A stretch of DNA of 64,000 nucleotides from Octopus vulgaris. Its lineage: Eukaryota. The position numbers were made by a program, and so were the translations under genes. The notes under the pieces are model-generated. The model made no database searches and had not been told where the DNA came from. It saw only the letters and a list, made by a program, of their open reading frames with translations. Positions 279 to 62,497 of the stretch are shown piece after piece; position 1 is the stretch's first letter; the number at the start of each line of letters is the position of its first letter. The stretch spans positions 13,392,001-13,456,000 of the forward strand of contig OX597819.1 of NCBI GenBank assembly GCA_951406725.2, in the 5' to 3' direction.

Positions 279-3200
279 ACAGGGGAAGGGCCCGGCATGT
301 ACATCAACAAAATACTTTAAGACCTTTTTTACAATAAGAAACAGGGGAAGGGCCCAGCATGTACATCAACAAAATTCTTTAAGACCTTTTTTACAATAAC
401 AAACAGGGGAAGGGCCCAGCATGTACATCAACAAAATACTTTAGGACCTTTTTTACAATAAGAAACAGGGGAAGGGCCCAGCATGTACATCAACAAAATA
501 CTTTAAGACCTTTTTTACAATAAGAAACAGGGGAAGGGCCCAGCATGTACATCAACAAAATACTTTAGGACCTTTTTTTACAATAACAAACAGGGAAAGG
601 GCCCAGCATGTACATCAACAAAATACTTTAGGACCTTTTTTACAACAACAAACAGGGGAAGGGCCCAGCATGTACATCAACAAAATACTTTAGGATCTTT
701 TTTACAATAACAAACAAGGGAAGGGCCCAGCATGTACATCAACAAAATACTTTAGGACCTTTTTTACAACAACAAACAGGGAAAGGGCCCAGCATGTACA
801 TCAACAAAATACTTTAGGACCTTTTTTACAATAACAAACAGGGGAAGGGCCCAGCATGTACATCAACAAAATACTTTAGGACCTTTTTTACAATAACAAA
901 CAAGGGAAGGGCCCAGCATGTACATCAACAAAATACTTTAGGACCTTTTTTACAACAACAAACAGGGAAAGGGCCCAGCATGTACATCAACAAAATACTT
1001 TAGGACCTTTTTTACAATAACAAACAGGGGAAGGGCCCAGCATGTACATCAACAAAATACTTTAGGACCTTTTTTACAATAACAAACAAGGGAAGGGCCC
1101 AGCATGTATATCAACAAAATACTTTAGGACCTTTTTACAACAACAAACAGGAAAGGGCCCAACATGTACATCAACAAAATACTTTAGGACCTTTTTTACA
1201 ACAACAAACAGGGAAAGGGCCCAGCATGTACATCAACAAAATACTTTAGGACCTTTTTACAATAACAAACAAGGGAAGGGCCCAGCATGTACATCAACAA
1301 AATACTTTAGGACCTTTTTTACAACAACAAACAGGGAAAGGGCCCAACATGTACATCAACAAAATACTTTAGGACCTTTTTTTACAATAACAAACAGGGG
1401 AAGGGCCCAGCATGTACATCAACAAAATACTTTAAGACCTTTTTTACAATAACAAACAGGGAAGGGCCCAGCATGTACATCAACAAAATACTTTAGGACC
1501 TTTACAATAAGAACCAGGGAAGGGCCCAGCATGTACATCAACAAAATACTTTAAGACCTTTTTTACAATAAGAAACAGGGGAAGGGCCCAGCATGTACAT
1601 CAACAAAATACTTTAGGACCTTTTTTACAATAACAAACAGGGGAAGGGCCCAGCATGTACATCAACAAAATACTTTAGGACCTTTTTTACAATAACAAAC
1701 AGGAGAAGGGCCCAGCATGTACATCAACAAAATACTTTAGGACCTTTTTTACAATAACAAACAAGGGAAGGGCCCAGCATGTACATCAACAAAATACTTT
1801 AGGACCTTTTTTACAACAACAAACAGGGAAAGGGCCCAGCATGTACATCAACAAAATACTTTAGGACCTTTTTTACAATAACAAACAGGGGAAGGGCCCA
1901 GCATGTACATCAACAAAATACTTTAGGACCTTTTTTACAATAACAAACAAGGGAAGGGCCCAGCATGTATATCAACAAAATACTTTAGGACCTTTACAAC
2001 AACAAACAGGGAAAGGGCCCAACATGTACATCAACAAAATACTTTAGGACCTTTTTTACAACAACAAACAGGGAAAGGGCCCAACATGTACATCAACAAA
2101 ATACTTTAGGACCTTTTTTACAATAACAAACAGGGGAAGGGCCCAACATGTACATCAACAAAATACTTTAAGACCTTTTTACAATAACAAACAGGGGAAG
2201 GGCCCAGCATGTACATCAACAAAATACTTTAGGACCTTTTTTACAATAAGAAACAGGGGAAGGGCCCAGCATGTACATCAACAAAATACTTTAGGACCTT
2301 TTACAATAACAAACAGGGAAAGGGCCCAGCATGTACATCAACAAAATACTTTAGGACCTTTTTTACAACAACAAACAGGGGAAGGGCCCAGCATGTACAT
2401 CAACAAAATACTTTAGGATCTTTTTTACAATAACAAACAAGGGAAGGGCCCAGCATGTACATCAACAAAATACTTTAGGACCTTTTTACAACAACAAACA
2501 GGGAAAGGGCCCAGCATGTACATCAACAAAATACTTTAGGACCTTTTTTACAATAACAAACAGGGGAAGGGCCCAGCATGTACATCAACAAAATACTTTA
2601 GGACCTTTTTTACAATAACAAACAAGGGAAGGGCCCAGCATGTACATCAACAAAATACTTTAGGACCTTTTTACAATAACAAACAGGGGAAGGGCCCAGC
2701 ATGTACATCAACAAAATACTTTAGGACCTTTTTTACAATAACAAACAAGGGAAGGGCCCAGCATGTATATCAACAAAATACTTTAGGACCTTTTTTACAA
2801 CAACAAACAGGGAAAGGGCCCAACATGTACATCAACAAAATACTTTAGGACCTTTTTTACAACAACAAACAGGAAAGGGCCCAGCATGTACATCAACAAA
2901 ATACTTTAGGACCTTTTTTACAATAACAAACAAGGGAAAGGGCCCAGCATGTACATCAACAAAATACTTTAGGACCTTTTTTACAACAACAAACAGGGAA
3001 AGGGCCCAACATGTACATCAACAAAATACTTTAGGACCTTTTTTACAATAACAAACAGGGGAAGGGCCCAACATGTACATCAACAAAATACTTTAAGACC
3101 TTTTTTACAATAACAAACAGGGAAGGGCCCAGCATGTACATCAACAAAATACTTTAGGACCTTTTTTACAATAAGAAACAGGGGAAGGGCCCAGCATGTA

Positions 3201-4772
3201 CATCAACAAAATACTTTAAGACCTTTTTTACAATAAGAAACAGGGGAAGGGCCCAGCATGTACATCAACAAAATACTTTAGGACCTTTTTTACAACAAAC
3301 AGGGAAAGGGCCCAGCATGTACATCAACAAAATACTTTAGGACCTTTTTTACAATAACAAACAGGGGAAGGGCCCAGCATGTACATCAACAAAATACTTT
3401 AGGACCTTTTTTACAATAACAAACAAGGGAAGGGCCCAGCATGTACATCAACAAAATACTTTAGGACCTTTTTTTACAACAACAAACAGGGAAAAGGGCC
3501 CAGCATGTACATCAACAAAATACTTTAGGACCTTTTTTACAATAACAAACAGGGGAAGGGCCCAGCATGTACATCAACAAAATACTTTAGGACCTTTTTT
3601 ACAATAACAAACAAGGGAAGGGCCCAGCATGTATATCAACAAAATACTTTAGGACCTTTTTTACAACAACAAACAGGGAAAGGGCCCAACATGTACATCA
3701 ACAAAATACTTTAGGACCTTTTTTACAACAACAAACAGGGAAAGGGCCCAGCATGTACATCAACAAAATACTTTAAGACCTTTTTTACAATAACAAACAG
3801 GGGAAGGGCCCAGCATGTACATCAACAAAATACTTTAGGACCTTTTTACAATAAGAAACAGGGAAGGGCCCAGCATGTACATCAACAAAATACTTTAAGA
3901 CCTTTTTTACAATAAGAAACAGGGGAAGGGCCCAGCATGTACATCAACAAAATACTTTAGGACCTTTTTTACAATAACAAACAGGGAAGGGCCCAGCATG
4001 TACATCAACAAAATACTTTAGGACCTTTTTTACAAAACAAACAGGGGAAGGGCCCAGCATGTACATCAACAAAATACTTTAGGATCTTTTTTACAATAAC
4101 AAACAAGGGAAGGGCCCAGCATGTACATCAACAAAATACTGGGACTTCAACAAAAACGGGAAAGGCCCACTGTACATCAACAAAATACTAGGACCTTTTT
4201 TACAATAACAAACAGGGGAAGGGCCCAGCATGTACATCAACAAAATACTTTAGGACCTTTTTTACAATAACAAACAAGGGAAGGGCCCAGCATGTACATC
4301 AACAAAATACTTTAGGACCTTTTTTACAATAACAAACAGGGAAAGGGCCCAGCATGTACATCAACAAAATACTTTAGGACCTTTTTTACAATAACAAACA
4401 AGGGAAGGGCCCAGCATGTATATCAACAAAATACTTTAGGACCTTTTTTACAACAACAAACAGGGAAAGGGCCCAACATGTACATCAACAAAATACTTTA
4501 GGACCTTTTTTACAACAACAAACAGGGAAAGGGCCCAGCATGTACATCAACAAAATACTTTAGGACCTTTACAATAACAAACAAGGGAAGGGCCCAGCAT
4601 GTACATCAACAAAATACTTTAGGACCTTTTTTACAACAACAAACAGGGAAAGGGCCCAACATGTACATCAACAAAATACTTTAGGACCTTTTTTACAACA
4701 ACAAACAGGGAAAGGGCCCAGCATGTACATTGACAAAATACTTTAGGACCCTTTTTTACAATAACAAACAGG
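279..4772. repeat. Satellite, 62-bp unit, ~72 copies
   Basis: Unit acaggggaagggcccagcatgtacatcaacaaaatactttaggaccttttttacaataacaa repeated head-to-tail. Confidence 0.98.
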
Positions 4773-5966
4773 TCTTCTTCAGCACAGTGAATCACCATTT
4801 ATCTTGGTCTCTGTATGTAAAACGAAGACACAAGTCAATTTTTGGCACAAACCCTGTTTGCTCACCAGATGTCCATTATAAACATTGCTTTTTTTTTTAT
4901 CTGTTTATATAATCTATCTTTTAGTTGTTGTATTTTCATTATTTCTTTGTTTGCCATATATTTATTTACATATTTTATAGAGTTATATATTTTATTCGTC
5001 TCACTGTTATTGTTTCTTTTTATTTGATTTCAAAGTTTCAATATTTTGTTTTATTTTTTTTTCTTTGAAATTTATAAACAATTTTATTTAAAAGAATTTT
5101 GTTAATTTTTGTGTAATTCCAATGAAAATATGATTCTAATTTATTCCATATTTTTACTTATTTCATTTTTGTTTTAATTTTTCTTTATTTTTTGGTTTCT
5201 TTTTTTCTTTTTGTTTTTCTTCTTTAGTGAACCTGAGACTGAAACAACAAATGCATATAATGTGTATGTTCTTTGTTTTTGTTTAATTCCTTCAAGCAGG
5301 CTTCATTCAGGCTGCTACTACTAACACTACTACTACTAATACCTATACTACTACTACTACTAATGCTGCTACTGCACTCTCTTAGTCTTCTCACTTCTTC
5401 ATGGTTCTTGCAGTGCCTTTTATCTTCCTTCCAAATATCCTTCAAACAATTCCCTCTAATGATCTCCTCCACTTCCATATACCTTTACCATCACTGTCTG
5501 GCCTTCCCCTTGTTTTATAAACTCTACTAAATCACTTTATGTAATTCTTTTATTGTGGCCATGCTGGAGCACTGACTTTAACTGATGATATTGATTCCCA
5601 TGTCTGTCTATTATTTTATTAACCTTGTAAAGACAAATTTTCAAATTCAACTCGGGTGTAAAAGAACAGAGCCAAATACCACAAGCAGACCAATTCTGCA
5701 TCCAATGTTGCTATACATATGTGATGCATACATACTTCTGAAGTTGAAGAAAATACTACAACAGGAGTCATGTATGAAACCCGAGGTATCAGAGTAACTA
5801 CTGTAGTGTTTTCAGTTTCAAAAATAAACGTGCACACACACACACACACACACACATACATACACACAAGTGAGTTTGGAGGGATATATTATCCAAGTGG
5901 ATGCCATATTAGCTCTCAGTTATGTTCCAGCTAACCACAACAATCAGTATCTAACATTTGTGACTA

Positions 5967-6408
5967 CATTATTTACACTTGATGTATATTTGTCCTCATC
6001 TTGTTTGTTTTTAACACAACTTTTCTGCTGATATACCCTGCAGCTTTCATCAGGTGTCTTGGGGAAATTTCGAACCTGGGTTCACATTCCTAAAGTATTT
6101 TTTTGATGTTGTTATTATTATTCAGGTCACTGCTTGGAATCGAACTCGGAAACTTCAGGTTAGTAGCCCACGCTCTTAACCACTATGCCATATGCCCGTG
6201 GGTATATGGTATAGTGGTTACCTGAATAATAATAATAATAACATTGAAAAATACTTTAGGAATGAGAACCCCGGTTCAAAATTTCCCCAAGATACCTGAT
6301 GAAGGCTGAGGATATATCAGCCAAAATGTTAACAACAAACAAGATGAGGACAAATATCCGTCAAATGTAAATAATGTAAATAATTCCTCATCTCTTAAAT
6401 ATAGAACT
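5967..6408. mobile_element. Fold-back element with tRNA-like head and degenerate hammerhead motif in each arm (copy 1)
   Basis: Arms ~5967-6196 and ~6200-6380 are inverted repeats; A/B boxes on minus strand 6133-6196; CTGATGA at 6296(+) and 6047-6053(-). Confidence 0.8.
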
Positions 6409-6883
6409 ATATTATCTATGACTACAATTAGTCGTTAGTCGCTTTCTGAATTCTTCCAATGGGTAATTCTATGTACCCTTTGGTGGACAGTTAAAATTGT
6501 CTGGAATATATATTAATAATTATAAAGAGTATGGCTATGGATGCCCACTGGAGTAGGTAAAAAATGGTTGAGGACCACTACACTAGTCTGAGACTCTGCT
6601 ACAAGACCATAAAACCTGTCCTTCCACCTTCTCTTTAACTCATCAAATGAGCAATTTGGTTTCCATTCCTGAGGATCTTTGGTATATAGGGTTTTCGTTT
6701 TGTTTTTGGTTTTTTTTTTTTTTTTGCATCCTCTGTCTTCGAATCGTGCCAAGGTTGACTTTATCTTTCATCCTTTGAGGGTCAGTGAAATAAAGTACCA
6801 GTGAAATGCTGGGGTTGATGTAATTGACTAAGTCCCTCCCCTCAAATATTACAAGCCATGTGCTTCAATCAGAAACTATTATT

Positions 6884-8943: not shown

Positions 8944-9264
8944 ACACAATCATACCTTCTACATAATCACTTTGACTTACTCACACACACTGGCAGAAAC
9001 GTTAGTGTTGAATGAATGCCTGGTAGTATTTCTTTCAACTCTTTAGGTTCTGAGTTCCGATCCCATCTAGGCCAACTTTGCATTTCATCCCTGTGGGGTT
9101 GATAAAATAAAGCACCAATCAAGTACTCAGGATATCAAGGTAATCAACTAACCCACCATCCCCAAAAAAGCTGGTTTTGTACTTAACATTAGAAGTCCCA
9201 AATGAACACCGGGTCAATGTAATCAACTCATCCACTCTCCACCAAAATTACTGCCCTTATGGCA

Positions 9265-9697
9265 AAAGCACCATTCAAGCCTGATCGTTGCCAGTGCCAC
9301 TCAACTGGCTCCCATGCCAGTGGCATGTAAAAAGCACCATTTGAGCGTGGCCATTGCCAGTGCCGCTTGACTGGCTCCCATGCCAGTGGCATGTAAAAAG
9401 CACCATTTGAACATGGTCGTTGCCAGTGCCGACAGACTGGTCCTGTGCTGGTGGCATGTAAAAAAGCACCATTCAAGCATGGCCGATGCCAGTACTGCCT
9501 GACTGGCCCTCATGCCAGTGGTATGTAAAAAGCACCCACTACACTCATGGAGTGGTTGGCGTTTGGAAGGGCATCCAGCTGTAGAAACTTTGCCAAATCA
9601 GATTGGTGCCTGATACAGCCTCCCGGCTTGCCAGTCCTCAGTCAAACCATCCAACCCATGCCAGCATGGAAAGCAGATGTTAGACAACAATGATGAT
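9265..9697 (+). mobile_element. Family C SINE-like element with internal ~60-bp tandem units and (GAT)n tail
   Basis: Repeated aaaagcaccatt...ccagtggcatgt units, gtggttggcg..ggaagggcatccagctgtag motif; related copies near 29810, 35560, 37075, 38760, 56960, 60780. Confidence 0.8.
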
Positions 9698-24458: not shown

Positions 24459-27400
24459 ACATATATAATTTTAGCAGTAACCACTAGGGTATGATCTTCA
24501 ATGTGGGAGATAGCTATTTGCCAACTAGGGTAAACTATGCCAAAAAAACAAAGTCACACTCCCACTTTCTGCTTGACTGCATAATATTTTAAGAGCTTCA
24601 TTCATTCATACAATATCACAGGTGAATGAGATGTTTGTATAAAATTAAAATCATTCTTTAATGAAAAGCTCTATTTTAAATGTTCTCTTGGTTAAACCTT
24701 CTCCTGCTTCACTGACATCTTGTTTTTGACTGCATTATCCTCACCAAGGCACAATGGCCCAGCTCCAGGAGTTGTTAAGAGGTGTCTGTGGTTGGGGATG
24801 GGCAAAGATCATTACAGTAAACAGTACATTTATTGTGTATATTTCTGGAATGTTTTTTCATTAGCTTTGAACACCCACCACCAAGACAAGAAAAACTAAA
24901 CAAAAAGAGAAAGCAAACACCAAACCCTGTATTAGTTTTAGTTAAGTTATTCTTAAGATATTTAATGTAGGAAACATTAACTCTTTGATGATTTAATAAA
25001 AATGTTGAGTGAGGGCCTTTTTCATTTGTTTGTTGAAATAATTTAGAGATCTCTTTATGTGGCTAACCACTAATGAACTCTTGTATATTACTCTTTTATT
25101 CGTTTCAGCCATTTGACTGTGGCCATGCTGGAGCACCGCCTTTAGTCGAGCAAATTCAACCCAGAGCTTATTCTTTGTAAGCCTAGTACTTATTCTGTTG
25201 GCCTCTTTTTCTGAACTGCTAAGTTACGGGGATGTAAACACACCAGCATTGGTTGTCAAACGATGTTTTGGGGGACAAACACACACACAAACATATACAC
25301 ACACACACACACATATACCAGCGGCGAGCTGGTAGAAACGTTAGCACGCCGGGCGAAATTCGTAGCCGTATTTCGTCTGTCGTTACGTTCCGAGTTCAAA
25401 TTCCGCCACGGTCGACTTTGCCTTTCATCCTTTCAGGGTCGATAAATTAAGTACCAGTTATGCACTGGGGTTGATGGAATCGACTTAATCCCTTTGTCTG
25501 TCCTTGTTTGTCCCCTCTGTGTTTAGCCCCTTGTGGGTAGTAAAGAAATACATATACGACAGGCTTCTTCCAGTTTCTGTCTACCAAATCCACTCACAAG
25601 GCTTTGGTTGGCCCCAGGCTATACTAGAAGACACTTGCCCAAGGTACCACGCAGTGGGACTGAACCCGGAGCTAGCTACTTACCATGCAAAAAATACGTT
25701 AGTGTGTTTATTAGTGATATTGTACATCTATGGCAATTGACTCTTACCTTTTCTTTTGTCTTTTATCTTGTTTCACTCATTTGACTATGACCATGCTGGA
25801 GCACATTTTAGTCAAATGAATTGACTCGGTACTTTTTTGTTTTAAGCCTGGTACTTATTCAATCAATCTCTTTTGCCAAACTGCTAAGTTATGGACACAT
25901 AAACACACCAACACCAGTTGTGAAGCAATGGTGGAAGATACATAAGGTGGCAAGCTGGCAGAAACGTTAGCATGCCCGGCGAAATGCTTAGCAGTATTTC
26001 ATCTGCCATTACGTTCTGAGTTCAATTTCCACCAAGGTCGACTTAGCCTTTCATCCTTTCGGGGTGATTTAAATAAGTACCAGTTATGCACTGGGGCTGA
26101 TTTAATCGACTTAATCCCTTTGTCCTTGTTTGTCCCCTCTATGTTTAGCCCCCTGTGGGTAATAAAGAAATAAATGGTGGGAGACACGTTATCTTTGTTT
26201 GTCCCCTCTATGTTTAGCCCCCTGTGGGTAATAAAGAAATAAATGGTGGGAGACACGTTATCTTTGTTTGTCCCCTCTATGTTTAGCCCCCTGTGGGTAA
26301 TAAAGAAATAAATGGTGGGAGACACGTTATCTTTCTTTGTCCCCTCTATGTTTAGCCCCCTGTGGGTAATAAAGAAATAAATGGTGGGAGACACGTTATC
26401 TTTGTTTGTCCCCTCTATGTTTAGCACCCTGTGGGTAATAAAGAAATAAATGGTGGGAGACACGTTATCTTTCTTTCTCCCCTCTATGTTTAGCCCCCTG
26501 TGGGCAATAAAGAAATAAATGGTGGGAGACACGTTATCTTTGTTTGTCCCCTCTATGTTTAGCCCCCTGTGGGTAATAAAGAAATAAATGGTGGGAGACA
26601 CGTTATCTTTCTTTGTCCCCTCTATGTTTAGCCCCCTGTGGGTAATAAAGAAATAAATGGTGGGAGACACGTTATCTTTGTTTGTCCCCTCTATGTTTAG
26701 CCCCCTGTGGGCAATAAAGAAATAAATGGTGGGAGACACGTTATCTTTGTTTGTCCCCTCTATGTTTAGCCCCTGTGGGTAATAAAGAAATAAATAGTGG
26801 GAGACACGTTATCTTTGTTTGTCCCCTCTATGTTTAGCCCCTGTGGGTAATAAAGAAATAAATGGTGGGAGACACGTTATCTTTGTTTGTCCCCTGTGGG
26901 TAATAAAGAAATAAATGGTGGGAGACATGTTATCTTTCTTTGTCCCCTCTATGTTTAGCCCCCTGTGGGCAATAAAGAAATAAATGGTGGGAGACACGTT
27001 ATCTTTCTTTGTCCCCTCCATGTTTAGCCCCCTGTGGGTAATAAAGAAATAAATGGTGGGAGACACGTTATCTTTGTTTGTCCCCTCTATGTTTAGCCCC
27101 CTGTGGGTAATAAAGAAATAAATGGTGGGAGAAACGTTATCTTTCTTTGTCCCCTCTATGTTTAGCCCCCTGTGGGTAATAAAGAAATAAATGGTGGGAG
27201 ACACGTTATCTTTGTTTGTCCCCTCTATGTTTAGCCCCCTGTGGGCAATAAAGAAATAAATGGTGGGAGACATGTTATCTTTCTTTGTCCCCTCCATGTT
27301 TAGCCCCCTGTGGGTAATAAAGAAATAAATGGTGGGAGACATGTTATCTTTCTTTGTCCCCTCTATGTTTAGCCCCCTGTGGGCAATAAGAAATAAATGG

Positions 27401-30400
27401 TGGGAGACACGTTATCTTTGTTTGTCCCCTCTATGTTTAGCCCCCTGTGGGCAATAAAGAAATAAATGGTGGGAGACACGTTATCTTTCTTTGTCCCCTC
27501 TATGTTTAGCCCCCTGTGGGTAATAAAGAAATAAATGGTGGGAGACACGTTATCTTTGTTTGTCCCCTCTATGTTTAGCCCCCTGTGGGCAATAAAGAAA
27601 TAAATGGTGGGAGACACGTTATCTTTGTTTGTCCCCTCTATGTTTAGCCCCCTGTGGGTAATAAAGAAATAAATGGTGGGAGACACGTTATCTTTGTTTG
27701 TCCCCTCTATGTTTAGCCCCCTGTGGGCAATAAAGAAATAAATGGTGGGAGACACGTTATCTTTGTTTGTCCCCTCCATGTTTAGCCCCCTGTGGGTAAT
27801 AAAGAAATAAATGGTGGGAGACACGTTATCTTTGTTTGTCCCCTCTATGTTTAGCCCCCTGTGGGTAATAAAAAAATAAATGGTGGGAGACACGTTATCT
27901 TTGTTTGTCCCCTCTATGTTTAGCCCCCTGTGGGTAATAAAGAAATAAATGGTGGGAGACACGTTATCTTTCTTTGTCCCCTCTATGTTTAGCCCCCTGT
28001 GGGTAATAAAGAAATAAATGGTGGGAGACACGTTATCTTTCTTTGTCCCCTCTATGTTTAGCCCCCTGTGGGTAATAAAGAAATAAATGGTGGGAGACAC
28101 GTTATCTTTGTTTGTCCCCTCTATGTTTAGCCCCCTGTGGGCAATAAAGAAATAAATGGTGGGATACACGTTATCTTTGTTTGTCCCCTCTATGTTTAGC
28201 CCCCTGTGGGTAATAAAGAAATAAATGGTGGGAGACACGTTATCTTTGTTTGTCCCCTCCATGTTTAGCCCCCTGTGGGTAATAAAGAAATAAATGGTGG
28301 GAGACACGTTATCTTTGTTTGTCCCCTCTATGTTTAGCCCCCTGTGGGTAATAAAGAAATAAATGGTGGGAGACACGTTATCTTTGTTTGTCCCCTCCAT
28401 GTTTAGCCCCCTGTGGGTAATAAAGAAATAAATGGTGGGAGACACGTTATCTTTGTTTGTCCCCTCCATGTTTAGCCCCCTGTGGGTAATAAAGAAATAA
28501 ATGGTGGGAGACACGTTATCTTTGTTTGTCCCCTCCATGTTTAGCCCCCTGTGGGTAATAAAGAAATAAATGGTGGGAGACACGTTATCTTTGTTTGTCC
28601 CCTCCATGTTTAGCTCCCTGTGTGTAATAAAGAAATAAATGGTGGGACACACGTTATCTTTGTTTGTCCCCTCCATGTTTAGCCCCCTGTGGGTAATAAA
28701 GAAATAAATGGTGGGAGACACGTTATCTTTGTTTGTCCCCTCCATGTTTAGCCCCCTGTGGGTAATAAAGAAATAAATGGTGGGAGACACGTTATCTTTG
28801 TTTGTCCCCTCCATGTTTAGCCCCCTGTGGGTAATAAAGAAATAAATGGTGGGAGACACGTTATCTTTGTTTGTCCCCTCCATGTTTAGCCCCCTGTGTG
28901 TAATAAAGAAATAAATGGTGGGAGACACGTTATCTTTGTTTGTCCCCTCCATGTTTAGCCCCCTGTGGGTAATAAAGAAATAAATAGTGGGAGACACATG
29001 TGTACATGCGCATGCACACACACACACACAGACACGTATTTTGTCTTCAAAAAAATGTATATTTAAATCAGGACAGATTTTTACCATAAAGGATCTTTTA
29101 CCAGTTCATCAAAAAATTATACATATGCTATTAAATGTTAAGGATGTAATGAAGATTACATATCTTCAACAAAACTAACTATTCACAGACAGCAAATGCG
29201 AAACCCCTATACTAGACAAATCCCACTGAGTGGACACATAGACATATGTGCAAAAAACAAATCTCCTAAATTCCAAGTCTTTCCACTTTGTTTGTTCAGG
29301 CAATATCATAGACCAAGCATGAATGAAGAAAGAAAATATATTCATACAAAAATTTAAAAAAATAAAACTGAATAAACTTTAACAAAGTGGGGATGGAAAC
29401 TTAAAAAAAATTTCTAAGCCTAATCATGTGATAATTCTCAACCAAAACAGATACTAATGTGAGCTATGTTCTCTCTATAAAAACAAGAGAATTCTTGAAC
29501 TCCAATCAGAAGCAAGACAGTTGCTGCATAGCTCTGTGTCTTTCTGTTTCGACTTTTGAGAATCAGAGACATCTGTGAAACTGGTTAAAAAATTTTAAAT
29601 ACAAAATCTAAATAAATTCCACTGTATTATCATCTTGTTTTTTCTATATTTCTGCCCATGTAGAATAAAATAACTTTGTTTTATATATATCATTATCATT
29701 GTTTAGCATCTGTTGTCCATGCTGACATGGGTTGGGTGGTTTGGCCAGGGCTAGTAAGCTGAGGATCTGCACCAGTCTCCAGTCTGATTTGGCATATATA
29801 TATCATCATCATCATCATCATCGTTTAGCGTCCACTTTCCATGCTAGCATGGGTTGGATGGTTCAACTGGGGTCTGGGAAGCCAGAAGGCTGCACTAGGC
29901 CCAGTTTGATCTGGCAATGTTTCTACGGCTGGATGCCCTTCCTAATGCCAACCACTCCATGAGTGTAGTGGGTGCTTTTTACGTGCCACAGGCACAGGTA
30001 CCAGACGAGTCTGGCAAACGGTCACGATCGGATGGTGCTTTTTATGTGCCACTGGCATGGGGGCCAGGCGAGGCTGGCAACGGCCACGAACGGATGGTGC
30101 TTTTCACGTGCCACTGGCACGAGGCCAGTCGGGGTGGCGCTGGCAACAGCGGCACTGGTAACTCAGCTGCAATTTCCATTGATCGATTTCGATTCTGATT
30201 TGTATGTATATAAAAGTATACATTCCAGTTTCTTTGTTTCTATCTACCAAATTTACTCACAAGGCTCTGATCAGCTTGAGGTTACAGTAGAAGACACCTA
30301 ACTAAGTTACCGGACAGTGGGTCTGAACCCAGAACCATGTTTAATACATCCCAAAAGGATGAAAGGCAAAGTCGACCTCAGTGGAATTTGAACTCAGAAT

Positions 30401-37057: not shown

Positions 37058-40000
37058 TACGTACGTACATACACATCATCATCGTTTAACGTCCGCTTCC
37101 CATGCTGGCATGGGTCGGATGGTTTGACTGAGATCTGGCAAACCAGGAGGCTGCACCAGGCTCCAATCTGATCTGGCTAGGTTTCTACAGCTGGATGCCC
37201 TTCCTAATACCCATTTCTTTACTACCCACAAGGGGCTAAACACAGAGAGGACAAACAAGGACAGACAAACGGATTAAGTTGATTATATCGACCCCAGTGC
37301 GTAACTGGTCCTTAATTTATCGACCCCAAAAGGATGAAAGGCAAAGTCGACCTTGGCGGAATTTGAACTCAGAACGTAGCAGCAGACGAAATACTGCTAA
37401 GCATTTCGCCCAACGTGCTAACGATTTTGCCAGCTCGCCGCCATAATACCAACCACTCTGATAATATAGTGGGTGCTTTTTACGTGCCACTGGCACAGGG
37501 GCCAGTCAGGCGGCACTGGCATCGGCCACATTCGGATGGTGCTTTTTACATGCTACCAGAACGGGAGCCAGTCAGGCAGCACTGACATCGACTACGCTCA
37601 ACTGGTGCTATTTACTGGCCACTGGTATGGTAGTCAGTCAGGCAGCACTAGCATCGACCATATTCGAATGATGCTTTTTATGTTCCACCGTAGAGTGTTA
37701 TTTGTCATATGACAGGCAACACTGGAGTACTTTCTATAATTTTTTGTTTTGGAGATGGTCTGCCTTAATGAGTTAATGAAGCCTTCACATGACTGCTTAA
37801 TGTCTTAGAAATAGCAACTAAATATTCCAAAGGCAAAGCCAAAAATTACCCAAAGCAGTCCTAAAAAAAGACATGTTGGACACCATATTACAGATGATCT
37901 GTCTAGACTAGCCAAAAATTAACCATCTTTTAATGACACATCTGCTGAATCATGGCTGACCTGGGGCTAAACAACTATCACAGCATATTTCTGCTCCCTT
38001 GGGAGCATTGAACCAACAAAAGATCCTCAGTCTGCTAGAAATAGCACACAACAGTTGTTCAATTGCATCATACCACTTCGAATAAGAAAAGGACTATATG
38101 AGATTTAATTTTGTCCTACACACCTGTAAAAAGCTGGGATGGTCGTGAATGGAACGCTTTGACTAATGGGTCTGCTTGGTCAGGTTTTACTTTGTGTTGA
38201 ATAACTCTGTGAGTTCTTTCAACAGTAAAAAAAAAAAATAACCAGTCTGAAAACCTCTTCCCTGCACCCATTAATGGGTCAGAGTGTTTCAAGTAAAAGT
38301 TTAGTCTCCTTTTAATACATCAACAAAGTGGAGGCACAATGGCTCAGTGGTTAGGACAGTGGACTCGCGGTCATAGGATTGCGGTTTCGATTCCCAGACC
38401 AAGCGTTGTGAGTATTTATTGAGAGAAAACACCTAAAGCTCTGCAAGGCTCCAGCAGGGGGTGGTGGCAAACCCTGCTGTACTCTTTCACCACAACTTTC
38501 TCTTACTCTTTCTTCCTGTTTCTGTTGTAGCTGTATTTCAAAGGGCCACCCTTGTCACACTCTGTGTCATGCTGAATCTCCAACGAGAACTACATTAAGG
38601 GTACACGTGCCTGTGGAGTGCTCAGCTTGCATGTTAATTTCATGAGCAGGCTGTTCCATTGTTCAGATCAACTGGAACCCTCATCGTTGTAGCTGACAGA
38701 GTGCCATGAAAACATCAACAGTACATAAGACTAATCGAAACCATCTCTGCGTATTGGCACCAACATTTACGTGCCACCTGCACGGAAGCCAGTCGAGGCG
38801 GCACTGGCTTCGGCCACGATTCGGATGGTGCTTTTTCCGTGTCGGTGGCACGTAAAAAGCACCATCTGAATCGTGGCCGAAGCCAGTGCCGCCTCAACTG
38901 GATTCGGATGGTGCTTTTTCCGTGTTGGTGGCACGTAAAAAGCACCATCCGAATCGTGGCCGAAGCCAGTACCGCCTCGACTGGCTTCCGTGCCGGTGGC
39001 ACGTAAAATGCACCAATCCGACCATGGCTGATGCCAGCCTCGCCTGGTACCAGTGCAGGTGGCACGTAAAAAGCACCCACTACACTCTCGGAGTGGTTGG
39101 CATTAGGAAGGGCATCCAGCTGTAGAAACTTTGCCAGATAAGACCGGAGCCTGGTGCAACCTTCTGGCTTCCCAGATCCCCAGTTGAACCGTCCAACCCA
39201 TGCTAGCATGGAGAACGGACATTAAACGATGATGATGATGATCTCTTTTGTAACCATTCAGTCCATAATTTTGTGTTTGATTTATATTTTTTTCTAATTT
39301 TCTTTCTAGGTTTCCAAGACTTTGATGATATCAAATATCCCAAAAGATAAATGTTTCAAAAGCATTGTATTACAACATTTTCAGTGAGTATTATTATTAT
39401 TATTATTATTACTTTACATTTTGAGTTCAAATTCCGCCGAGGTCAACTTTACCTTTCATCCTTTTGGGGTGGATAAATTAAGTACCAGTTGAACACTGGG
39501 GCCAAAGTAATTGACTCATCCCCACCTCCCTCAAGCTACCCTTATGACAAAATTTGAAATCATTATTATTATTAGTAGTAGTTGTAGTAGTAGTAGTTGT
39601 AAAGTACCTACTCATGTAACTAGAATTGATGTAATTGACTATACCCTGACTCCACAGATGTGTGGCCTTGTGCCTGTGTCAGAAATTAATATTGTTTTCA
39701 TCAACATCATCACCATTATTACCTCCGTCTTAGTGAAGGTGAGGTATTGTTTTTTAGTTGTGTTTGATTGCTTATTTGTCCGTGAACAAGATATCTCAAG
39801 AACCGCTTTCAGGGATGTTTGGCCTCATAGCTAGCATGAACTGATTAGATTTTGAGATCAATCTGGTACCGAACAAAGATTCTGAATTATTTTTCCTGTT
39901 TTTTTACTTAATTTTTGAGAGCAGTTGAGTTCATTTTTAGTATTCTCATTTATGAGAGCAGTAGAGTTTATTTCAGATATTCTCATTTTAAAAATCATCT

Positions 40001-41535: not shown

Positions 41536-44500
41536 TACTACTACCCTGTGTGCATATGCAAAAGCAGAGTATTGTAATCACTCATCTTTGTCTGTGCGTT
41601 TGCAAAATTATTGGAAAATGGTCGAGCGGATTTTCACCAAATTTGGCAGAAATACTCATTGGGTGAGTGGCTCGAAATGATGAAAATTTGGTTTGATTAT
41701 CTTCAAACATGCAATAAATACATACACAGATATGCATATGTGTGTGTGTATGTGTGTGTGTCTGTGTGTACAGTGATGGATTCAAGGGTTTCGTTTATTA
41801 ATGAGTTGATATCCGAATTTCACCGGAGTATAAATATACCTATAATGGTGATATTTAATCGAACTTACAAATTTCCCAATAAGCCAGTGATCATATTATT
41901 TATATCCTACAATGAACTATGAAAGATAGTGCAAAACACTTCTCAAATTCTATGCAATATTTTCTATAAGTATTTCATTTTGTTCACTTTCTTCTTCATA
42001 ATCATGATTATTATTTGAAGAATCATTTATTTAGTCATTTGCAAATTTTACTCATATATATAATTTGTATGTTGAACTTTCCAAAACAACCTTTGATTTT
42101 CTTTGTCAACTTGTATTTTAGTATTTCACTGTAAAACTATTGAATATAGAAAGTTTTTTTTTTTTTTTTGAACACACATAATTCTTCAGTGAAAAATTGG
42201 AGAAGAATCTTCATTTTACGTTATTTTTTTCTTAATTTTAATTCCAAACCCCTTAAAATAACATTCAAATTTCTTGACCAACTCATATTTTAATGTTTTC
42301 GCAAAAACCAATTGAAATACGAGTAGCTGCTTCCACGTGCCTGGTGGAAATGAAAAATTATAAATTCACTTCTTTGACCATATTTCCTTTAACTTCAATC
42401 ATATTTTTGGATAAAAAAAAAACAAACAGATTTTTGTAATTTATCTGCATTGCCCCCTCCAGTGCCTTTTTTCTTCATTATTATAATTATTTTAATTTTA
42501 TCTTTTATTAAAGAGAGTCCTATGAAGACATTTCTATTCTGGACATTCAATTTGCCTATGACATCACAAAACTTGTTAAATTGGACTCAAATCGGTAAGT
42601 TGATTACTTAGATACTCTAAATTCAGTATTTATGTTTGTTGTGTTGTTTTTTATTGTTGTTGTTGTTTAACCCCGAGTATCCCTGATCCAACAGTCCTCT
42701 GATCAACCAAATCAATTCTTGTTTTAATCTGACAGTTTTTTTTTTCTAAGACATAGCATCAGTTATATAAGTCCCGGTTGTTGTTTTTGCTGTTTAGTCC
42801 AAATGTATTCCAGTCATGACCATCCTGTCTTTTCCCCCAACACAGTACATTGAGGACCATATTGTCCAACATGTCCTTCTTTTCAAATACTCTATAGTGT
42901 AACTGTTATTTCTATCAGATCAGGTGACCATGTAGAAGCCACATTGTTAACTTGACAACTTACTGTTAATTATCAGAGGATTAATTTACTTGATTGTAAA
43001 CTCCAAATACAAATCCTCACTGCTTTGTGAGTGCGTTGGAAAAGGTTAAGGGAGCCAAACCTCAAAAGGTAATCAAGGAGTGGGGCCCTTAACTCCTTAG
43101 TTTTCAGATTATCTCTCTGCAAATGTAATCTTTATCTATACACATTGTTTTGAATTTATCAGGCATCATCTTGTAGCTTTGAGATTTTGATGATGATGAT
43201 CATGATCATCATCATCATTTAACGTCCATGTTCCATGCTAGCATGGGTGGGAAAGTGCCACAAGAGCCAGCCAGGCTGAAGCCTGCACCAGACTTTTATG
43301 ACTGTTTTGGCAGGATTATTCCTAACACCAACTACTCAGCAGAGTGGACTTAGTGCTTTTTATGTGGCACAAGCACAGGCAAGGTCAGTTTGGCAAGGTT
43401 TTTACAGCTGGATACCTTTCCAAACGCCAAACCACTTTACCAGTGTGGACTGGATGCTTTTTAAGTGGCACCTGCACTGACAGGGTTACCAAGTACTTAC
43501 ATGACAAAAACTTTTAAGAGGGGAGGAGGCATTGGAAGAGGTGATGATGAAAAGATTATAGTGAGTTGGATACAGGTGTCTTGCTGTAGAGGAAGTACAA
43601 GGTTACCTGGCTAGAGAGAGAAAGATCTGGAATAGAGACAGAAACTGGTGTGCTACCGCAAAGAAAATACATGGTTGTTCAACCTGAGGGAAGTGCAGGG
43701 GAGAGAGAGAGAGAATGGGAAACCGCAAGATGAAGATGGGGTTCAAACGCCATAATATAAGTGACAGGATTTTGTGAAGGGAGTGCGAGTAAGTGGCAAA
43801 AGACCTGGGTATATATAGATGGAGGGGCTACTGGGTAGCAATGCTGCAGAGGAACAGGGGTGTGAGGACAGGATTGGGGAGTGAGAGCTAGGCATGGTGA
43901 ATGAAGATGGTGAGCTGCTAGATGCAGGAGGAAAGAGTGAGAAAAAGTTGTGGCGAAAGAGTCAGCAGAAGTTTGCTATTACCTTCTGCCAGAGCTGCAT
44001 GGAGCTTAGGTGTTTTGCTCATAAACACACCAATCGCCTGGTCTGAGATTCGAACCCGCAATCCCTCAACTGCGAGTCCGCTGCTCTAACCACTAGGCCA
44101 TGAGCCTCCAGTCATGTAAACATATACAGGCTCTTTTATTGGTTTGGCTTATTTGATTGATTATAGGGTGGGTAACATGGGGGAGGGATAAAAACAAAAT
44201 TGACCTTGACAAGAACTGGAAGGAACAGAACTAAATATCACCAAATATTTATTTTGTCAATCATTTCCCTGGTTCTGCCATCCACTGCTTCTTCTGAGAT
44301 GAATACATGAGCTTCTCTCCCACCCACTCCTGCCTCTCTCATTTTGTTAGCAGCATACGTTCTGAGTTCAAATTCCGCCGAGGTCGACTTTGCCTTTCAT
44401 CCTTTCGGGGTCGATAAATAAAGTACCACTTTCCAACTGGGGTCGATGTAATCGACTGAATCCCTTTGTCTGTCCTTGTTTGTCCCCTCTATGTTTAGCC

Positions 44501-55790: not shown

Positions 55791-58700
55791 GTAGTTGGGG
55801 AGAATCATAGTCATGTGTTGAGAGGAATTCTTTGGGATTTGGATAATTCACCTTTGGAAACATGGGTGTTTTGTTCATCACCCTTAAACAACCCTTATTC
55901 AGGGACCTTTTGAGCAGGATAGGTTGGGAAGGGCATCCAGCTTATTAATATTCTATATTAATAAGCAAAAACTGATTTATAGCATGTGTAAATTAAGAAT
56001 CTTTGAAATTATTAAACGCGGAAACTTCTACATGTTTGCTCAATCCACTACAAATAGCAGCCAAATATCCCTCATATCACACTCTTCTGCCTTAAAATAT
56101 GAAGGACACATTGAGTACTGTAGCATGGAAGCAAGAAGGCAAGATGTCCAAGTTCCACAACTCTTTACTGAAATAGTGCAATTGTTTTCATTATTTACAT
56201 TATTTACATTTGACGGATATATGTTCTCATCTTGTTTGTTGTTAACACAACATTTCGGCTGATATACCCTCCAGCTTTCTTCAGGTGTTTTAGGCAAATT
56301 TCGAACTTGGGTTCTCATTCCTAAGGTATTCTTCGATATTATTATTATTATTGTTGTTCAAGTCACTGCTTGGAATCGAACTCAGCATATGGCGTAGTGG
56401 TTAAGAGCGTGGGCTACTAACCCCAAGATTCCGAGTTCAATTCCAAACATCGAAGAATACCTTAGGAATCAGAACCCAAGTTCGAAATTTCCCCAAGACA
56501 CTTGAAGAAGGCTGGAGGGTATATCAGCTGAAACATGTTAGCAACAAACAAGATGAGGACAAATATCCATCGAATGTAAATAATGTACATAATTCCTCAT
56601 CTCTTTAATATAGAACTGTGCAATTGTTTTGTTTTATTTTATGATAAAATGTCTCAGTGTGCAATAGATTGTAGTGTGACCTGTTTAATCCCTGTTGTGA
56701 GGTTGTCATGTCTGAGAGTTGTTAAGACGTGGGAAGTGAATTGGCAGGATTGGTAGAGCATCGGACAAAGTGTGATTTTTGGTTACATCTCTTTGCAGTC
56801 TTGAGTTCAAATCCTATCCAAGTCTAATCTGCCTTTTATGCTTCTAAGCTTGGTAAAAATAATACTACTGTCAATGACTCTAACTTAGAATCTATTACTT
56901 TAGTCTATAAGTGTAAAACAATGAAAGGTTGTTCAACTAAACTTTATATTTTGTTATGAATGTGGTTGATGCTGGTGCTCCCTGACTGGCTCCCGTGCTG
57001 GTGGTACATAAAAAGCACCATCTGAACATGGTCGATGCTAGGTCTGCCTAGCTGACTCCCATACCGGTGGTATGTAAAAAGCACCATTCGAATGTGGTTG
57101 ATGCTGGTGCCCCCTGACTGGCTCCCATGCTGGTGGTACATAAAAAGCACCATCTGAACATGGTCGATGCCAGGTCTGCATGACTGACTCCCATGCCGGT
57201 GGCATGTAAAAAGCACTGTCCAAACATTATCAATGTCAGGCCCACCTGACTGACTCCCGTGCCAGTGGCACATAAAAAGCACCATCCAAATATGGCTAAT
57301 GCCAGTGAGGGTCATCTGACTGGCTCCCGTGCCAGTGGCACATAAAAAGCACCATCCAAATATGGCTAATGCCAGTGCCCCCTGACTGGCTCCTGTGCCG
57401 GTGGCACATAAAAAGAACTGTCCGGACATGATCAATGCCAGGGTCATCTGACTGACTCCCGTGCCAGTGGCACATAAAAAGCACCATCCAAATATGGCTA
57501 ATGCCAGTGCCCCCTGACTGGCTCCCGTGCTGGTGGTACATAAAAAGAACTGTCCGGACATGATCAATGCCAGGGTCATCTGACTAGCTCCTGTGCTGGT
57601 GGCACATGAAGAGCATCCACTACACTCTTGGAGTGGTTGGTGTTAGGAAGGGCATCCAACTGTAGATATCTATATATATAAAACTCTAGTTGTGTGAGTG
57701 TCTGTCCCCTTCGATTTAGATTCCTAACTCCTCCCACATTTTGCGGTGCAGTTTAACCAAATTCGGGTATCTTATAGTCGTGATTCATATCGAGCCCGTC
57801 TGACTATTAGCGCGCGTCAACGATGAGTCTACGATTTTAAAAATAATTTAACATCATTTTTTATTCCATTTTAATGCATAAAATGCATCGTGTGTCGATG
57901 GCGGCGGAGTTGGCGTCCACGCTCACAGCTGCACCTGTTTGCTTTTCCCCCTTCCCTCCCTCGTGAAGCTGTGGGGAAGGGAGTGTAAAGAAATCAACGT
58001 CGTAATGCGTTGTGAAGGAAACCAGCGTTCTTTTAGAACAACGACTTCATGGCTTGAAAACACCAAACCAAAAATGGCTAAGAAAGCCTGAATTTATAAG
58101 GGAAGTAACTTTCTAAAAATGCTTATATAGTTATTTCCCTTACAAACCCGAGCGATACTGCTAGTCTTTATATATAAAAGTAAGGTTGTATGTCTGTCTC
58201 CTACGATTTAGATTCCTAACTACTCCCACATTTTGTGGTGCAGTTTAACCAAAACCGGGTATCTTATAGTTGTGATTCATATCGACCTCTTCTGGGTATT
58301 AGCGCGCGTCTACGATTTTAAAAAAAATTACCATCATTTTTTTCCATTTTAATCCATTTTTTTCGCTATTATATAAGGGAAGTAACTCTCTAAAAATGTC
58401 TACGATGTGTCAACGATTTAAAAAAAATTTACCATAATTTTTTTTCCATGCCATTTTTTTGCTATTTTTTGGCTATAACTCTCTAAAAATGCTTATATAG
58501 TTATTTCCCTTACAAACCCGAGCAACGCTGGGCGATACTGCTAGTTTGATAATATAGTTCTAGATACACTAAAAATGAGACAAAATAGTTATGGCTAGAA
58601 TGTCCTGGGGTTGACCAGTGGGGTAGGGGCTAAAGAGAAATCTGTGTATAATGAAAATATTAATCAGTTCTGTTTCTTAAATCAAAATTCTATTTTCCAT

Positions 58701-59547: not shown

Positions 59548-62497
59548 TAATAATAATAATAATAAAAACACTTTCAATACAGTAACCATAAGAGCATCAC
59601 AACAAATCACAGCACATACCCAAGGCACACAGAGCTGTGATTTGGATAATTCACCTTTGAGAACATGGGTGTTTTGTTCATCATCCTTAAACAACCCTTA
59701 TTCAGGGACCTTTTGAGCAGGATAGGTTACTTGACCCGAAGAAAATTCTAACTGGGCTCCACCTGCAAGGTCATGCACTATTTATCTTAAAACAAAATCA
59801 CCCTATCACACACACACGATTGTGATGCATGTGCCTAGTGTACCCTTATCAGACGGGTAGTCATGATGGGTATACTGGGCTTCATGTATTTGTACCCCAG
59901 TGTCACTTTGAAGGCATACACTGCTCTCTCACTCAATAATAATAATAACAAAGTTTTGTTGTGTCTGAGGAGAGTCATATTACCTTAATATCTAACACAC
60001 AAGTTCAATGTCCACTCATTCGTTATTTATATATTTTTTCCTATTAAATTGTTCGTTATTTTCAAAATTCATTGTAACAAAGGCAATGTATTTCAACAGA
60101 ATATAAGAAAAGGGTTAAATATTACAGCTTTAGGAATCTCAAACCAAATTTAGAAAAACTGAGAATAATAAGACCACTGTCTCCTTTATTGGTGCTTCCT
60201 ATCTCCTCTTTTACTTGTTTCTAGTAAGCTGTAGTGCCCCTGAACCCTATATACAATAAGCTGATTATTGCTTTTAAAATAAGCAGGGGAAAAGTTATAA
60301 TTAAATTAAGAAAATATACAAGAATATAAAAATGATATTGAATTTCTTATGAAATATATATTGTTGCTATCATTTGTTATTGTTTTTCTATTTTAGGTCT
60401 AATATATCTTGCCATGAAACACATGGTTGATCGCTATAATATATATTTTGCATACAAGCCATCTCGTATCAACAAACACATCCACACAACAGCCGTGAAC
60501 TTTGTTATAGTCTCTGTAATATTACTCCAAATTGTTATAGTATTCTTCACAGCACTACGTCTAAGTAAGTATTTTGATAATTCTCTCTTTAATATTACTA
60601 ATTATTGCGGAGGAGTGATCTGCTCCAATGGTAGAACACCTGGCATGTGTGCAGGAAATGCAGTTTCGAATCCTATGGACTTCCTTTGATTCTCGTTTTT
60701 AAGGCAGCAAGCTGGCAGAATCGTTACCACACCAGGTGAAATGCTTAGCAGTATTTCATCTGTCTTTATGTTTATCGTCATCATCATTGTCATTTAATGT
60801 CTCCTTTCCATGCTGGCATGGGTTGGACGGTTTGACTGAGGGCTGGCGAGCCAGAAGGCTGCACCAGGTTCCAATCTAATCTGGCAATGTTTCTACAGCT
60901 GGATGCCCTTCCTAACGCCAACCACTCTGAGAGTGTAGTGGGTGCATTTTACATGCCACTGGCATGAGGGTCAATCAGGCGGTACTGGCATGGGCCATGC
61001 TTTGATGGTGCTTTTTATGTGCCACCAGTCAGCTGGCACCAGCAACGACCATGCTCGAATGGTGCTTTTTATGTGCCACTGTCACAGGTGCCAGTCAGGC
61101 GATACTGTCATTGGCCATGACGATGACTTCACTTGCCTCAACAGGTCTTCGCAAGCACAGTTTATTACATTCTGAGTTCAAATTCCGCCGAAATCAACTT
61201 TGCCTTTCATCTTTTCGGGGTCGATAAATAAAGTACCATTTGCATACTCAAGTCGATCTAATTGACTGGCCCCCTCCCCCAAAATTTCCGGCCTTGTGCT
61301 TAGAGTAGAAAAGACTGTTACTAATTATCATTAATAATTTTACTTTATATTCTTTTTGAGACTGTCATCCTTTGTAACATAACGAGGATTATTACATCTA
61401 AAAATTAGTGTTGCGTAGCAATAAGTTGTTTGCAAGTTAATGGGTTGGTTTCAATTTAAGCTCCACTGTCCTCTTTGGTCAGCCACAGAAATTATACCAA
61501 AGGTGACATTTGAGCTTGACGCAATCCAACCCTTGCAAGCATCGGAAAGCAGATATACCTCAAGTGCTGAAGAGGCTGCTATGCACTTTTAGCCAGCATG
61601 CCTGAAGAATTTATCAAAACTGTCCAGTGGCAATATTTGACATGAAAACGACGGTAACATTCTGACAGTGAGGAGGAGGAGGCTAAAACTGCTTGACTTA
61701 ACCCATTCTAACATTACTTCTGCTTCTTTGAAACAAAACTGTTTCCTTTAAAGTTTTCCTACTTCTATCAGAATCCTTCCTTACAAAACTGTTCTGTATT
61801 TTTGAGATGAGGAATTCTGTACATTATTTACATTGGATGGATATGCATCCTCATCTAGTCTGTTGCTACCTTCCTTCCTTAAAGTTTATATTCAAAACTC
61901 CTTTTTATGTTCCCAACACCATGATAAAAGCCAAAAAATAAGAACCATTGGTTAATTTCTTGAAATTCTGGTTTGAAATATTGGTTTCAAATTTTTGCAC
62001 AAGGCCAGCGATTTCTGGGGTGGGGCTGGGGTAAGTTGATTACATCAACCCCAGTGCTTAACTGATACTTAGGCTATCAACGCTGAAAGAGTATCATTAT
62101 ATTGTTAGAAATTTGATTATAAAAGACTTTATGACCCACATAGAACTTTTGGAAAAGATATGAATGTTACACTTTCTGATTTTGTCTTTGACTTTATAGA
62201 ACTATACATCATCATCATCGTCGTCATCATTCTTAATCACACACCTCTGCCAGTGTAAAGAAATAGGTATAAAATATGTGGTTTTGGTTAAAATTGATAG
62301 AAATTAGGTAACCAAACATTTAATGTTATGTTTAGATTATATGTGGTGAAGTGGTTAATAATAATAATAATAATAATAAAAACACTTTCAATACAGTAAC
62401 CATAAGAGCATCTCAACAAGCCACAGCACATACCCAAGGCACACAAAGCTGCGCTCAGTAGTGAAGTGAAAGCACAATATAAAGATAAAACTACTGA

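Follow-up and report, generated by a model that had tools for sequence, protein, structure and literature searches.

The fold-back element at positions 56189-56617 of a 64,000-nucleotide stretch of the Octopus vulgaris genome (contig OX597819.1, assembly GCA_951406725.2, positions 13,392,001 to 13,456,000; hereafter the window) is, judging from sequence, almost certainly a pair of truncated pLTR pieces of an autonomous Penelope/Poseidon-type element. The pLTR opens with a tRNA-Arg-derived A/B-box sequence, which looks to be a new feature at the head of a Penelope pLTR and is plausibly a Pol III-type promoter.

Anatomy of the window insertion

The two arms of the element lie head to head between target-site duplications, and two further members of the family occur in the same window. 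The features are as follows.

56176..56188, plus: left target-site duplication, 13 bp, identical to 56618-56630
56190..56384, minus: inverted partial pLTR copy that lacks the tail and extends from the B box to the first RT start point; this end type clusters at profile columns 2619-2628
56244..56288, minus: minimal type-I hammerhead with its core preserved and the palindrome of stem III lost to CpG decay
56372..56383, minus: B box of the inverted arm
56385..56617, plus: forward pLTR copy from tRNA position +3, profile columns 2387-2652, with the (AAT)n spacer deleted internally
56390..56400, plus: A box of the tRNA-Arg-derived head
56433..56444, plus: B box of the tRNA-Arg-derived head
56468..56470, plus: likely start codon position of the element, mutated in the window copy; the frame crosses the hammerhead
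56497..56541, plus: decayed hammerhead with C3 changed and a recurrent 3-nt deletion at the cleavage triplet
56586..56617, plus: Penelope tail, an extension of the plus arm only; column 2652 is the exact end of 72 arms
56618..56630, plus: right target-site duplication, 13 bp, identical to 56176-56188
5961..6426, both strands: second insertion of the family, a minus and a plus arm within an 8-bp duplication
5961-5968 and 6419-6426: the 8-bp duplication of the second insertion
6180-6190 (A box) and 6136-6147 (B box), minus: minus arm of the second insertion, with the full head
6189-6209: hairpin junction of the second insertion
61791..61869, minus: third, older 3' fragment of the pLTR

The preliminary description had recognized two arms inside a perfect 13-bp duplication, a hammerhead core in the minus arm and the lack of any intact arm in the window. 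All of these hold: the duplicated ends are identical, the core is present at 56244-56288, and 0/4 arms pass a strict hammerhead scan. It had also assigned tRNA-like A and B boxes to one arm. Those of the plus arm are real, but a B box is present in the minus arm too, making that arm a more truncated copy of the pLTR unit. The arms are 87% alike over 151 nt and diverge from 56384/56385. In the second insertion the plus arm runs to 6408 and is followed by 10 nt that match the ORF body at 9/10 positions.

Family arms have two fixed end points ~24-34 nt apart, at columns 2619-2628 and 2652, and in the window element only the plus arm has the tail. An inverted truncated copy and a tail are described for Penelope in PMC8557442, which agrees with the earlier interpretation of the inverted partial copy as a Penelope insertion product. 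A crude search of 41 inverted structures found duplications of 12-18 nt in 16, shorter duplications in 6, and nothing of the kind in the other 19. A 9-nt duplication that keeps the frame is present at the tail-less end point (columns 2608-2628) in 27/147 arms.

Other repeats in the window include a 62-bp satellite (279-4772, 73 copies), a 69-bp satellite apparently derived from part of a common dispersed repeat (26126-28997, 42 copies), and a different tRNA-headed SINE on the minus strand (43909-44110, A/B boxes at 44100). A dispersed repeat with 66-bp internal units occurs at 9264-9536, 38793-38988 and 56975-57615; one copy forms a long hairpin and yields spurious miRNA matches.

The autonomous element

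A search of the 2.8-Gb assembly with the plus arm as query returned 5669 first-look pLTR candidates, 40 of which were scored; first-look candidates numbered 2273 for the endonuclease and 385 for the RT start. Inspected by eye, 11/27 distinct head-bearing loci had a GIY-YIG frame upstream of the tRNA-like part, its stop codon separated from the head by a 30-nt spacer. Farther upstream lay the RT domain and then, ahead of the ORF, the 270-nt pLTR unit again. Among loci found with the ORF start as query, the pLTR ran straight into the ORF start in 21/29. The order within the pLTR is tRNA-like A/B boxes, (AAT)n, ATG, hammerhead and tail, and the RT + GIY-YIG frame stops ~30 nt ahead of the next pLTR. 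In the column-majority sequence of 265 aligned hits, which served as our yardstick, an 835-codon open frame has its ATG inside the pLTR and crosses the hammerhead, and the peptide encoded by the hammerhead is kept in a relative with 54% identity.

The frame contains an RT domain (PF00078, E 1.4e-10); nearly all of 18 longer relatives also have the RT, and all have PF26215. The predicted structure of the C-terminus resembles the GIY-YIG domain of I-TevI (Z 10.2, rmsd 2.5, 87 aligned), and the next-ranked structures are GIY-YIG proteins too. Foldseek with the C-terminal model gave no match at E<=0.001, I-TevI being the best relevant one at E 0.37. PF01541 was matched by 7/23 aligned members and the element's own domain had no match to it. 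The domain is of the GIY-YIG type with a CCHH motif (invariant Y53, C57, C59, Y63, R74, H78, H95). No extra zinc-finger motif, the feature linked to Neptune/Nematis in PMC8557442, was seen in the RT-EN linker of natural copies. Other traits of EN+ Penelope-like elements were pLTRs on both sides, partial tandems, the inverted 5' copy and a tail of 30-40 nt.

None of the 20 long loci inspected was an intact full-length copy; all were broken or partial. Profile hits were counted by hand in 140 stretches of 10 kb, evenly spaced over contigs C1-C17 (1.4 Mb in all); the resulting ~26 loci, or 18.6/Mb (95% interval 12-27), extrapolate to a family of roughly 50,000 loci, mostly truncated. The viral contigs searched contained no relative of the element. 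Relatives with ~52% identity in the P0007 cluster include barnacle proteins annotated as uncharacterised genes. Two loci, L083:1210-1938 and L074 (G000 C3 and C4), have ~270 nt of the ORF start followed directly by a second pLTR from its head, possibly through template jumps or as an internally deleted derivative.

The preliminary description had proposed a non-autonomous ribozyme SINE, transcribed by Pol III and mobilised by a Penelope RT, and had suggested a search for an autonomous RT + GIY-YIG Penelope sharing its 3' ~200 nt. That element is present in the same genome and its frame is continuous with the pLTR, in keeping with a Penelope RT as the mobilising enzyme. The SINE reading itself fails: the autonomous element has the complete unit, with the tRNA-like head, as its pLTR, rather than lending a 3' end to a separate SINE. 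With respect to the traits of tRNA-derived SINEs, a tRNA head with A/B boxes is present and a lineage distinct from the partner was not found. Two subfamilies are marked by hammerhead N7, their only difference within the hammerhead core, and by two linked sites. Both hold ORF-linked, head-starting and shorter copies, and the median non-CpG divergence is 3.7-3.8% in all three classes (n = 37, 41, 40). The arms of one insertion differ at N7 in 4/21 pairs (L024, L025, L029, L046), as if two different RNAs had templated one event. We also considered a non-LTR retrozyme, which consists of head-to-tail tandem hammerhead units in bioRxiv 10.64898/2026.07.22.740005, and rejected it, as copies of this family are single or inverted pairs.

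The tRNA-like head and its boundary

Among 30 host tRNA loci, a partial set, the head aligned best to tRNA-Arg, with a score of 59 (shuffles 27.5 +/- 3.7, maximum 42). The A and B boxes are kept and the cloverleaf is lost, leaving a likeness in primary sequence only. ARAGORN found no tRNA in the window and six family loci, and Rfam at E<=10 gave no tRNA or hammerhead match at the element in the window and eight young copies. The boxes are identical between the subfamilies, whose differences are too few overall to show selection. No A/B boxes were found as part of the element in 54 control relatives; control loci L402 and L335 have a tRNA-Leu and a tRNA-like head nearby, respectively, which were rejected as neighbours.

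Copies tend to stop at the head. With a query of the boxes only, 20/20 fetched copies (matches near the top of 40 places) stopped there, compared with 2/20 stopping within 15 nt for a control query in the ORF end (Fisher P 3e-9); there was a minor variant in the query of the boxes, so 20/20 may overstate the boundary. With the longer query, 11/27 copies did run on upstream of the head, as counted by eye. In the random sample (1.4 Mb), 9/11 loci reaching the A box stopped there, the 11 leaving out one locus that was too decayed, two folded inside the head and one untraced across an AAT run. The pLTRs ahead of the ORF reach the head in only 2/21 cases, and one true tandem passes it. Most head-starting arms (34/49) end bluntly at ~-8 to +7, and the other 15 end in a small hairpin just upstream of +1. 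RNase P-type processing was rejected as the source of these 5' ends, since there is no cloverleaf and the ends reach ~6 nt upstream of +1.

Behind the tail, head-starting arms carried at least 3 ORF-body letters in 7/18 cases and at least 5 in 4/18 (chance 0.018 and 0.002 each; one misclassified arm dropped), which points to an RNA with its start at the head and continuing into the ORF as the likely template. Type-2 Pol III promoters start transcription 10-20 nt before the A box, with ~13 nt as the usual spacing, and their units have no T run inside. For such a unit here, the copy ends and T4 counts are indirect support. We consider it likely that Pol III starts at the head, counting in the case in which it makes only short or incomplete RNAs.

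T4 runs and transcription

The 2652-column unit contains no T4 run, against 2.98 expected from synonymous shuffles of the ORF (P=0.027), and the ORF is T4-poor over its whole length. Natural copies (n = 34) have 0.36 T4 runs/kb vs 3.07/kb in 54 other Penelope ORFs, which were chosen from 80 related Penelope loci from metagenomes as the longer, non-duplicate matches. Two of 14 control clusters are equally low, one of them with an ordinary T-rich pLTR, and G4 runs are also absent from the unit. As the unit has no T4 run, a Pol III RNA could read through the ORF, and the T4 poverty gives this moderate weight only.

In three raw RNA-seq runs of one study, ~6% of each of which was read, thousands of reads covered the element with equal depth on both strands and no pile-up at a start or end. 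This pattern fits passive read-through and speaks neither for nor against Pol III. Among the indexed sequencing runs searched, none with the element is recorded as RNA. That the coding RNA is also made by Pol III seems to us an evenly balanced proposition, leaning slightly towards yes.

The hammerhead

As the preliminary description expected, CUGANGA and GAAA are conserved in the family consensus, with core columns at 88-98% apart from N7 and CpG sites. Fully intact hammerheads occur in 13/124 genomic arms, and an intact arm folds into stems I and II. The described stem III palindrome, AACGUU, is indeed palindromic, but its pairing part is ACGU and the rest is A14 and the cleavage-site nucleotide. 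The extra A is a published trait of Penelope minimal hammerheads: PMC4209133 reports an additional nucleotide following A9, and also motif pairs on opposite strands. Comparison with the Rfam hammerhead models, also suggested earlier, did not recover the motif at E<=10. A double-hammerhead dimer is feasible but lies above the minimum-energy fold (-21.3 vs -28.6 kcal/mol). Stems I and II show no compensatory differences between the subfamilies, and the copies behave as a single young family under neutral decay.

No indel in the whole unit is commoner than the 3-nt deletion at the cleavage triplet, where columns have 30% gaps; the median is 0, and the adjoining AAC repeat has 5-9%. It occurs in both subfamilies (10/30 and 15/76 arms), and its state differs between the arms of one locus in 6/19 pairs. 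The deletion is possibly a ribozyme footprint, on this comparison of copies: an RT jump over the cut via 2-nt homology would yield it. Simple slippage would yield it equally. In the targeted loci, 5' ends do not clearly accumulate at the cleavage site (columns 2570-2589 have 7 arms per 10-nt bin, the head 13-15). Copies keep sequence upstream of the cleavage site, so ribozyme processing, part of the earlier proposal, is not what generates them.

Proposed mechanism and alternatives

We propose as the probable account that the element is a truncated pLTR pair and that its RNA starts at a captured tRNA-Arg-type Pol III promoter. Transcription would begin ~6 nt ahead of the tRNA-like +1. The RT-endonuclease would bind near the ORF start and cut both target strands 12-14 bp apart, and RT would prime internally at two points, with and without the tail, as anole Poseidon does in vitro according to PMC11167929. 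Copying back to the RNA 5' end would give SINE-like arms of 270 nt, which would be joined through microhomology or a small self-priming hairpin. For an ORF-bearing copy, transcription would have to continue into a second pLTR. Hammerhead cleavage would be weak and would take place in a dimer or with protein assistance, and the main template would be uncleaved RNA. Against the account as a whole, the RNA-seq runs show equal depth on both strands and no start or end pile-up, and translating a capless RNA of 2.9 kb would call for a non-standard route.

Pol III might instead make only short or incomplete RNAs that give the head-starting copies, with the coding RNA arising by Pol II read-through of tandem or intronic copies. 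Short copies far exceed ORF-bearing ones among the first-look candidates (5669 pLTR vs 2273 endonuclease and 385 RT start), one contiguous tandem exists, and Penelope of D. virilis has a TATA-less internal promoter (PMC2377424). This alternative is nevertheless unlikely: the unit lacks a terminator that would release a short RNA, ORF-body letters occur in head-starting copies, and T4 runs are scarce from one end of the ORF to the other.

We find it more doubtful still that the tRNA-like piece was caught in the 3' UTR long ago, as a SINE or tRNA fragment, and is carried along as a passenger, the boundary being a hot spot for RT fall-off or fold-back at a short palindrome immediately ahead of it. 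The hairpin junction at the boundary in 15/49 head-starting arms and the head's loss of the tRNA fold are in its favour, but 34/49 arms end bluntly and hairpin-free, the hairpin stem is just 4 bp, and the ~13 nt from boundary to A box is the usual Pol III start spacing. An independent, non-autonomous tRNA-headed SINE lineage with a borrowed Penelope 3' end is highly improbable: many solo 270-nt copies have head, ribozyme and target duplication, and a short-only sub-lineage is conceivable, but the head belongs to the autonomous element itself, long and short copies of equal age occur in both subfamilies, and the templates carried ORF-body letters. Returning to the captured-promoter account, its fullest form is that an autonomous element exchanged its Pol II promoter for a captured tRNA-Arg gene, cleared its 2.9-kb coding unit of Pol III terminators and sheds tens of thousands of SINE-like 5'-end copies, the hammerhead-site deletion recording in vivo cleavage; we offer this tentatively, at slightly less than an even chance.

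Comparison with known systems

Pol III promoters are known in non-coding passengers such as SINEs, Cassandra, Helenus and Sm-alpha, and autonomous elements are presumed to depend on Pol II. A Penelope with a tRNA promoter in its pLTR would, if true, provide a test of capless Pol III RNA as a retrotransposon mRNA, and would illustrate one step by which a ribozyme-bearing SINE-like family can arise directly from its partner. Head-starting copies are prone to mis-annotation as SINEs or tRNA pseudogenes, and the deletion hot spot could serve as a genomic handle on in vivo cutting by PLE hammerheads. Ohshima and Okada reportedly described tRNA-derived retroposons of octopus in 1994, OR1/OR2 being of Arg origin. 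These likewise have a tRNA-Arg-like head, a likeness of description rather than of compared sequences. The literature searched listed no Penelope with a tRNA promoter in the pLTR; Repbase, Dfam, SINEBase, supplements or the 1994 octopus paper might already list the short form.

A forward tailed copy, an inverted tail-less copy and an extra-A hammerhead are all published for Penelope, so the fold-back itself is ordinary Penelope biology. PMC11167929 shows that RT of anole Poseidon begins synthesis internally, at two sites that flank the tail, that cutting and extension involve both strands, and that uncleaved RNA serves as the principal substrate. Like Poseidon PAc of that report, the octopus element has RT, with GIY-YIG at the C-terminus, in one ORF that starts in the pLTR and crosses the hammerhead, two 3' end points, an inverted truncated 5' copy and, by our model, copying of uncleaved RNA. 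Unlike its Penelope/Poseidon relatives, its pLTR opens with tRNA-derived A/B boxes and its unit has no T4 runs; Penelope of D. virilis has a LINE-like TATA-less promoter (PMC2377424). Compared with the minimal type-I hammerheads of metazoan PLEs (PMC4209133), the predicted helix II is 5-6 bp rather than 7-8, and the putative cleavage triplet is GUU.

In the repeated units of schistosome Sm-alpha/Sj-alpha, too, a hammerhead follows a tRNA-related Pol III promoter (PMC6765202, PMC2770079), but these are non-coding SINE-like tandem repeats, whereas in the octopus a protein-coding element has the combination in its pLTR. Cassandra, Helenus and Ajax (TRIMp3), as described in PMC10886601, likewise have a small-RNA-derived Pol III promoter in the terminal repeat without a functional tRNA fold. 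That report argues that Pol II is obligatory for the autonomous partners of TRIMp3 elements, which are themselves non-autonomous LTR elements of <1.3 kb, unlike the octopus element.
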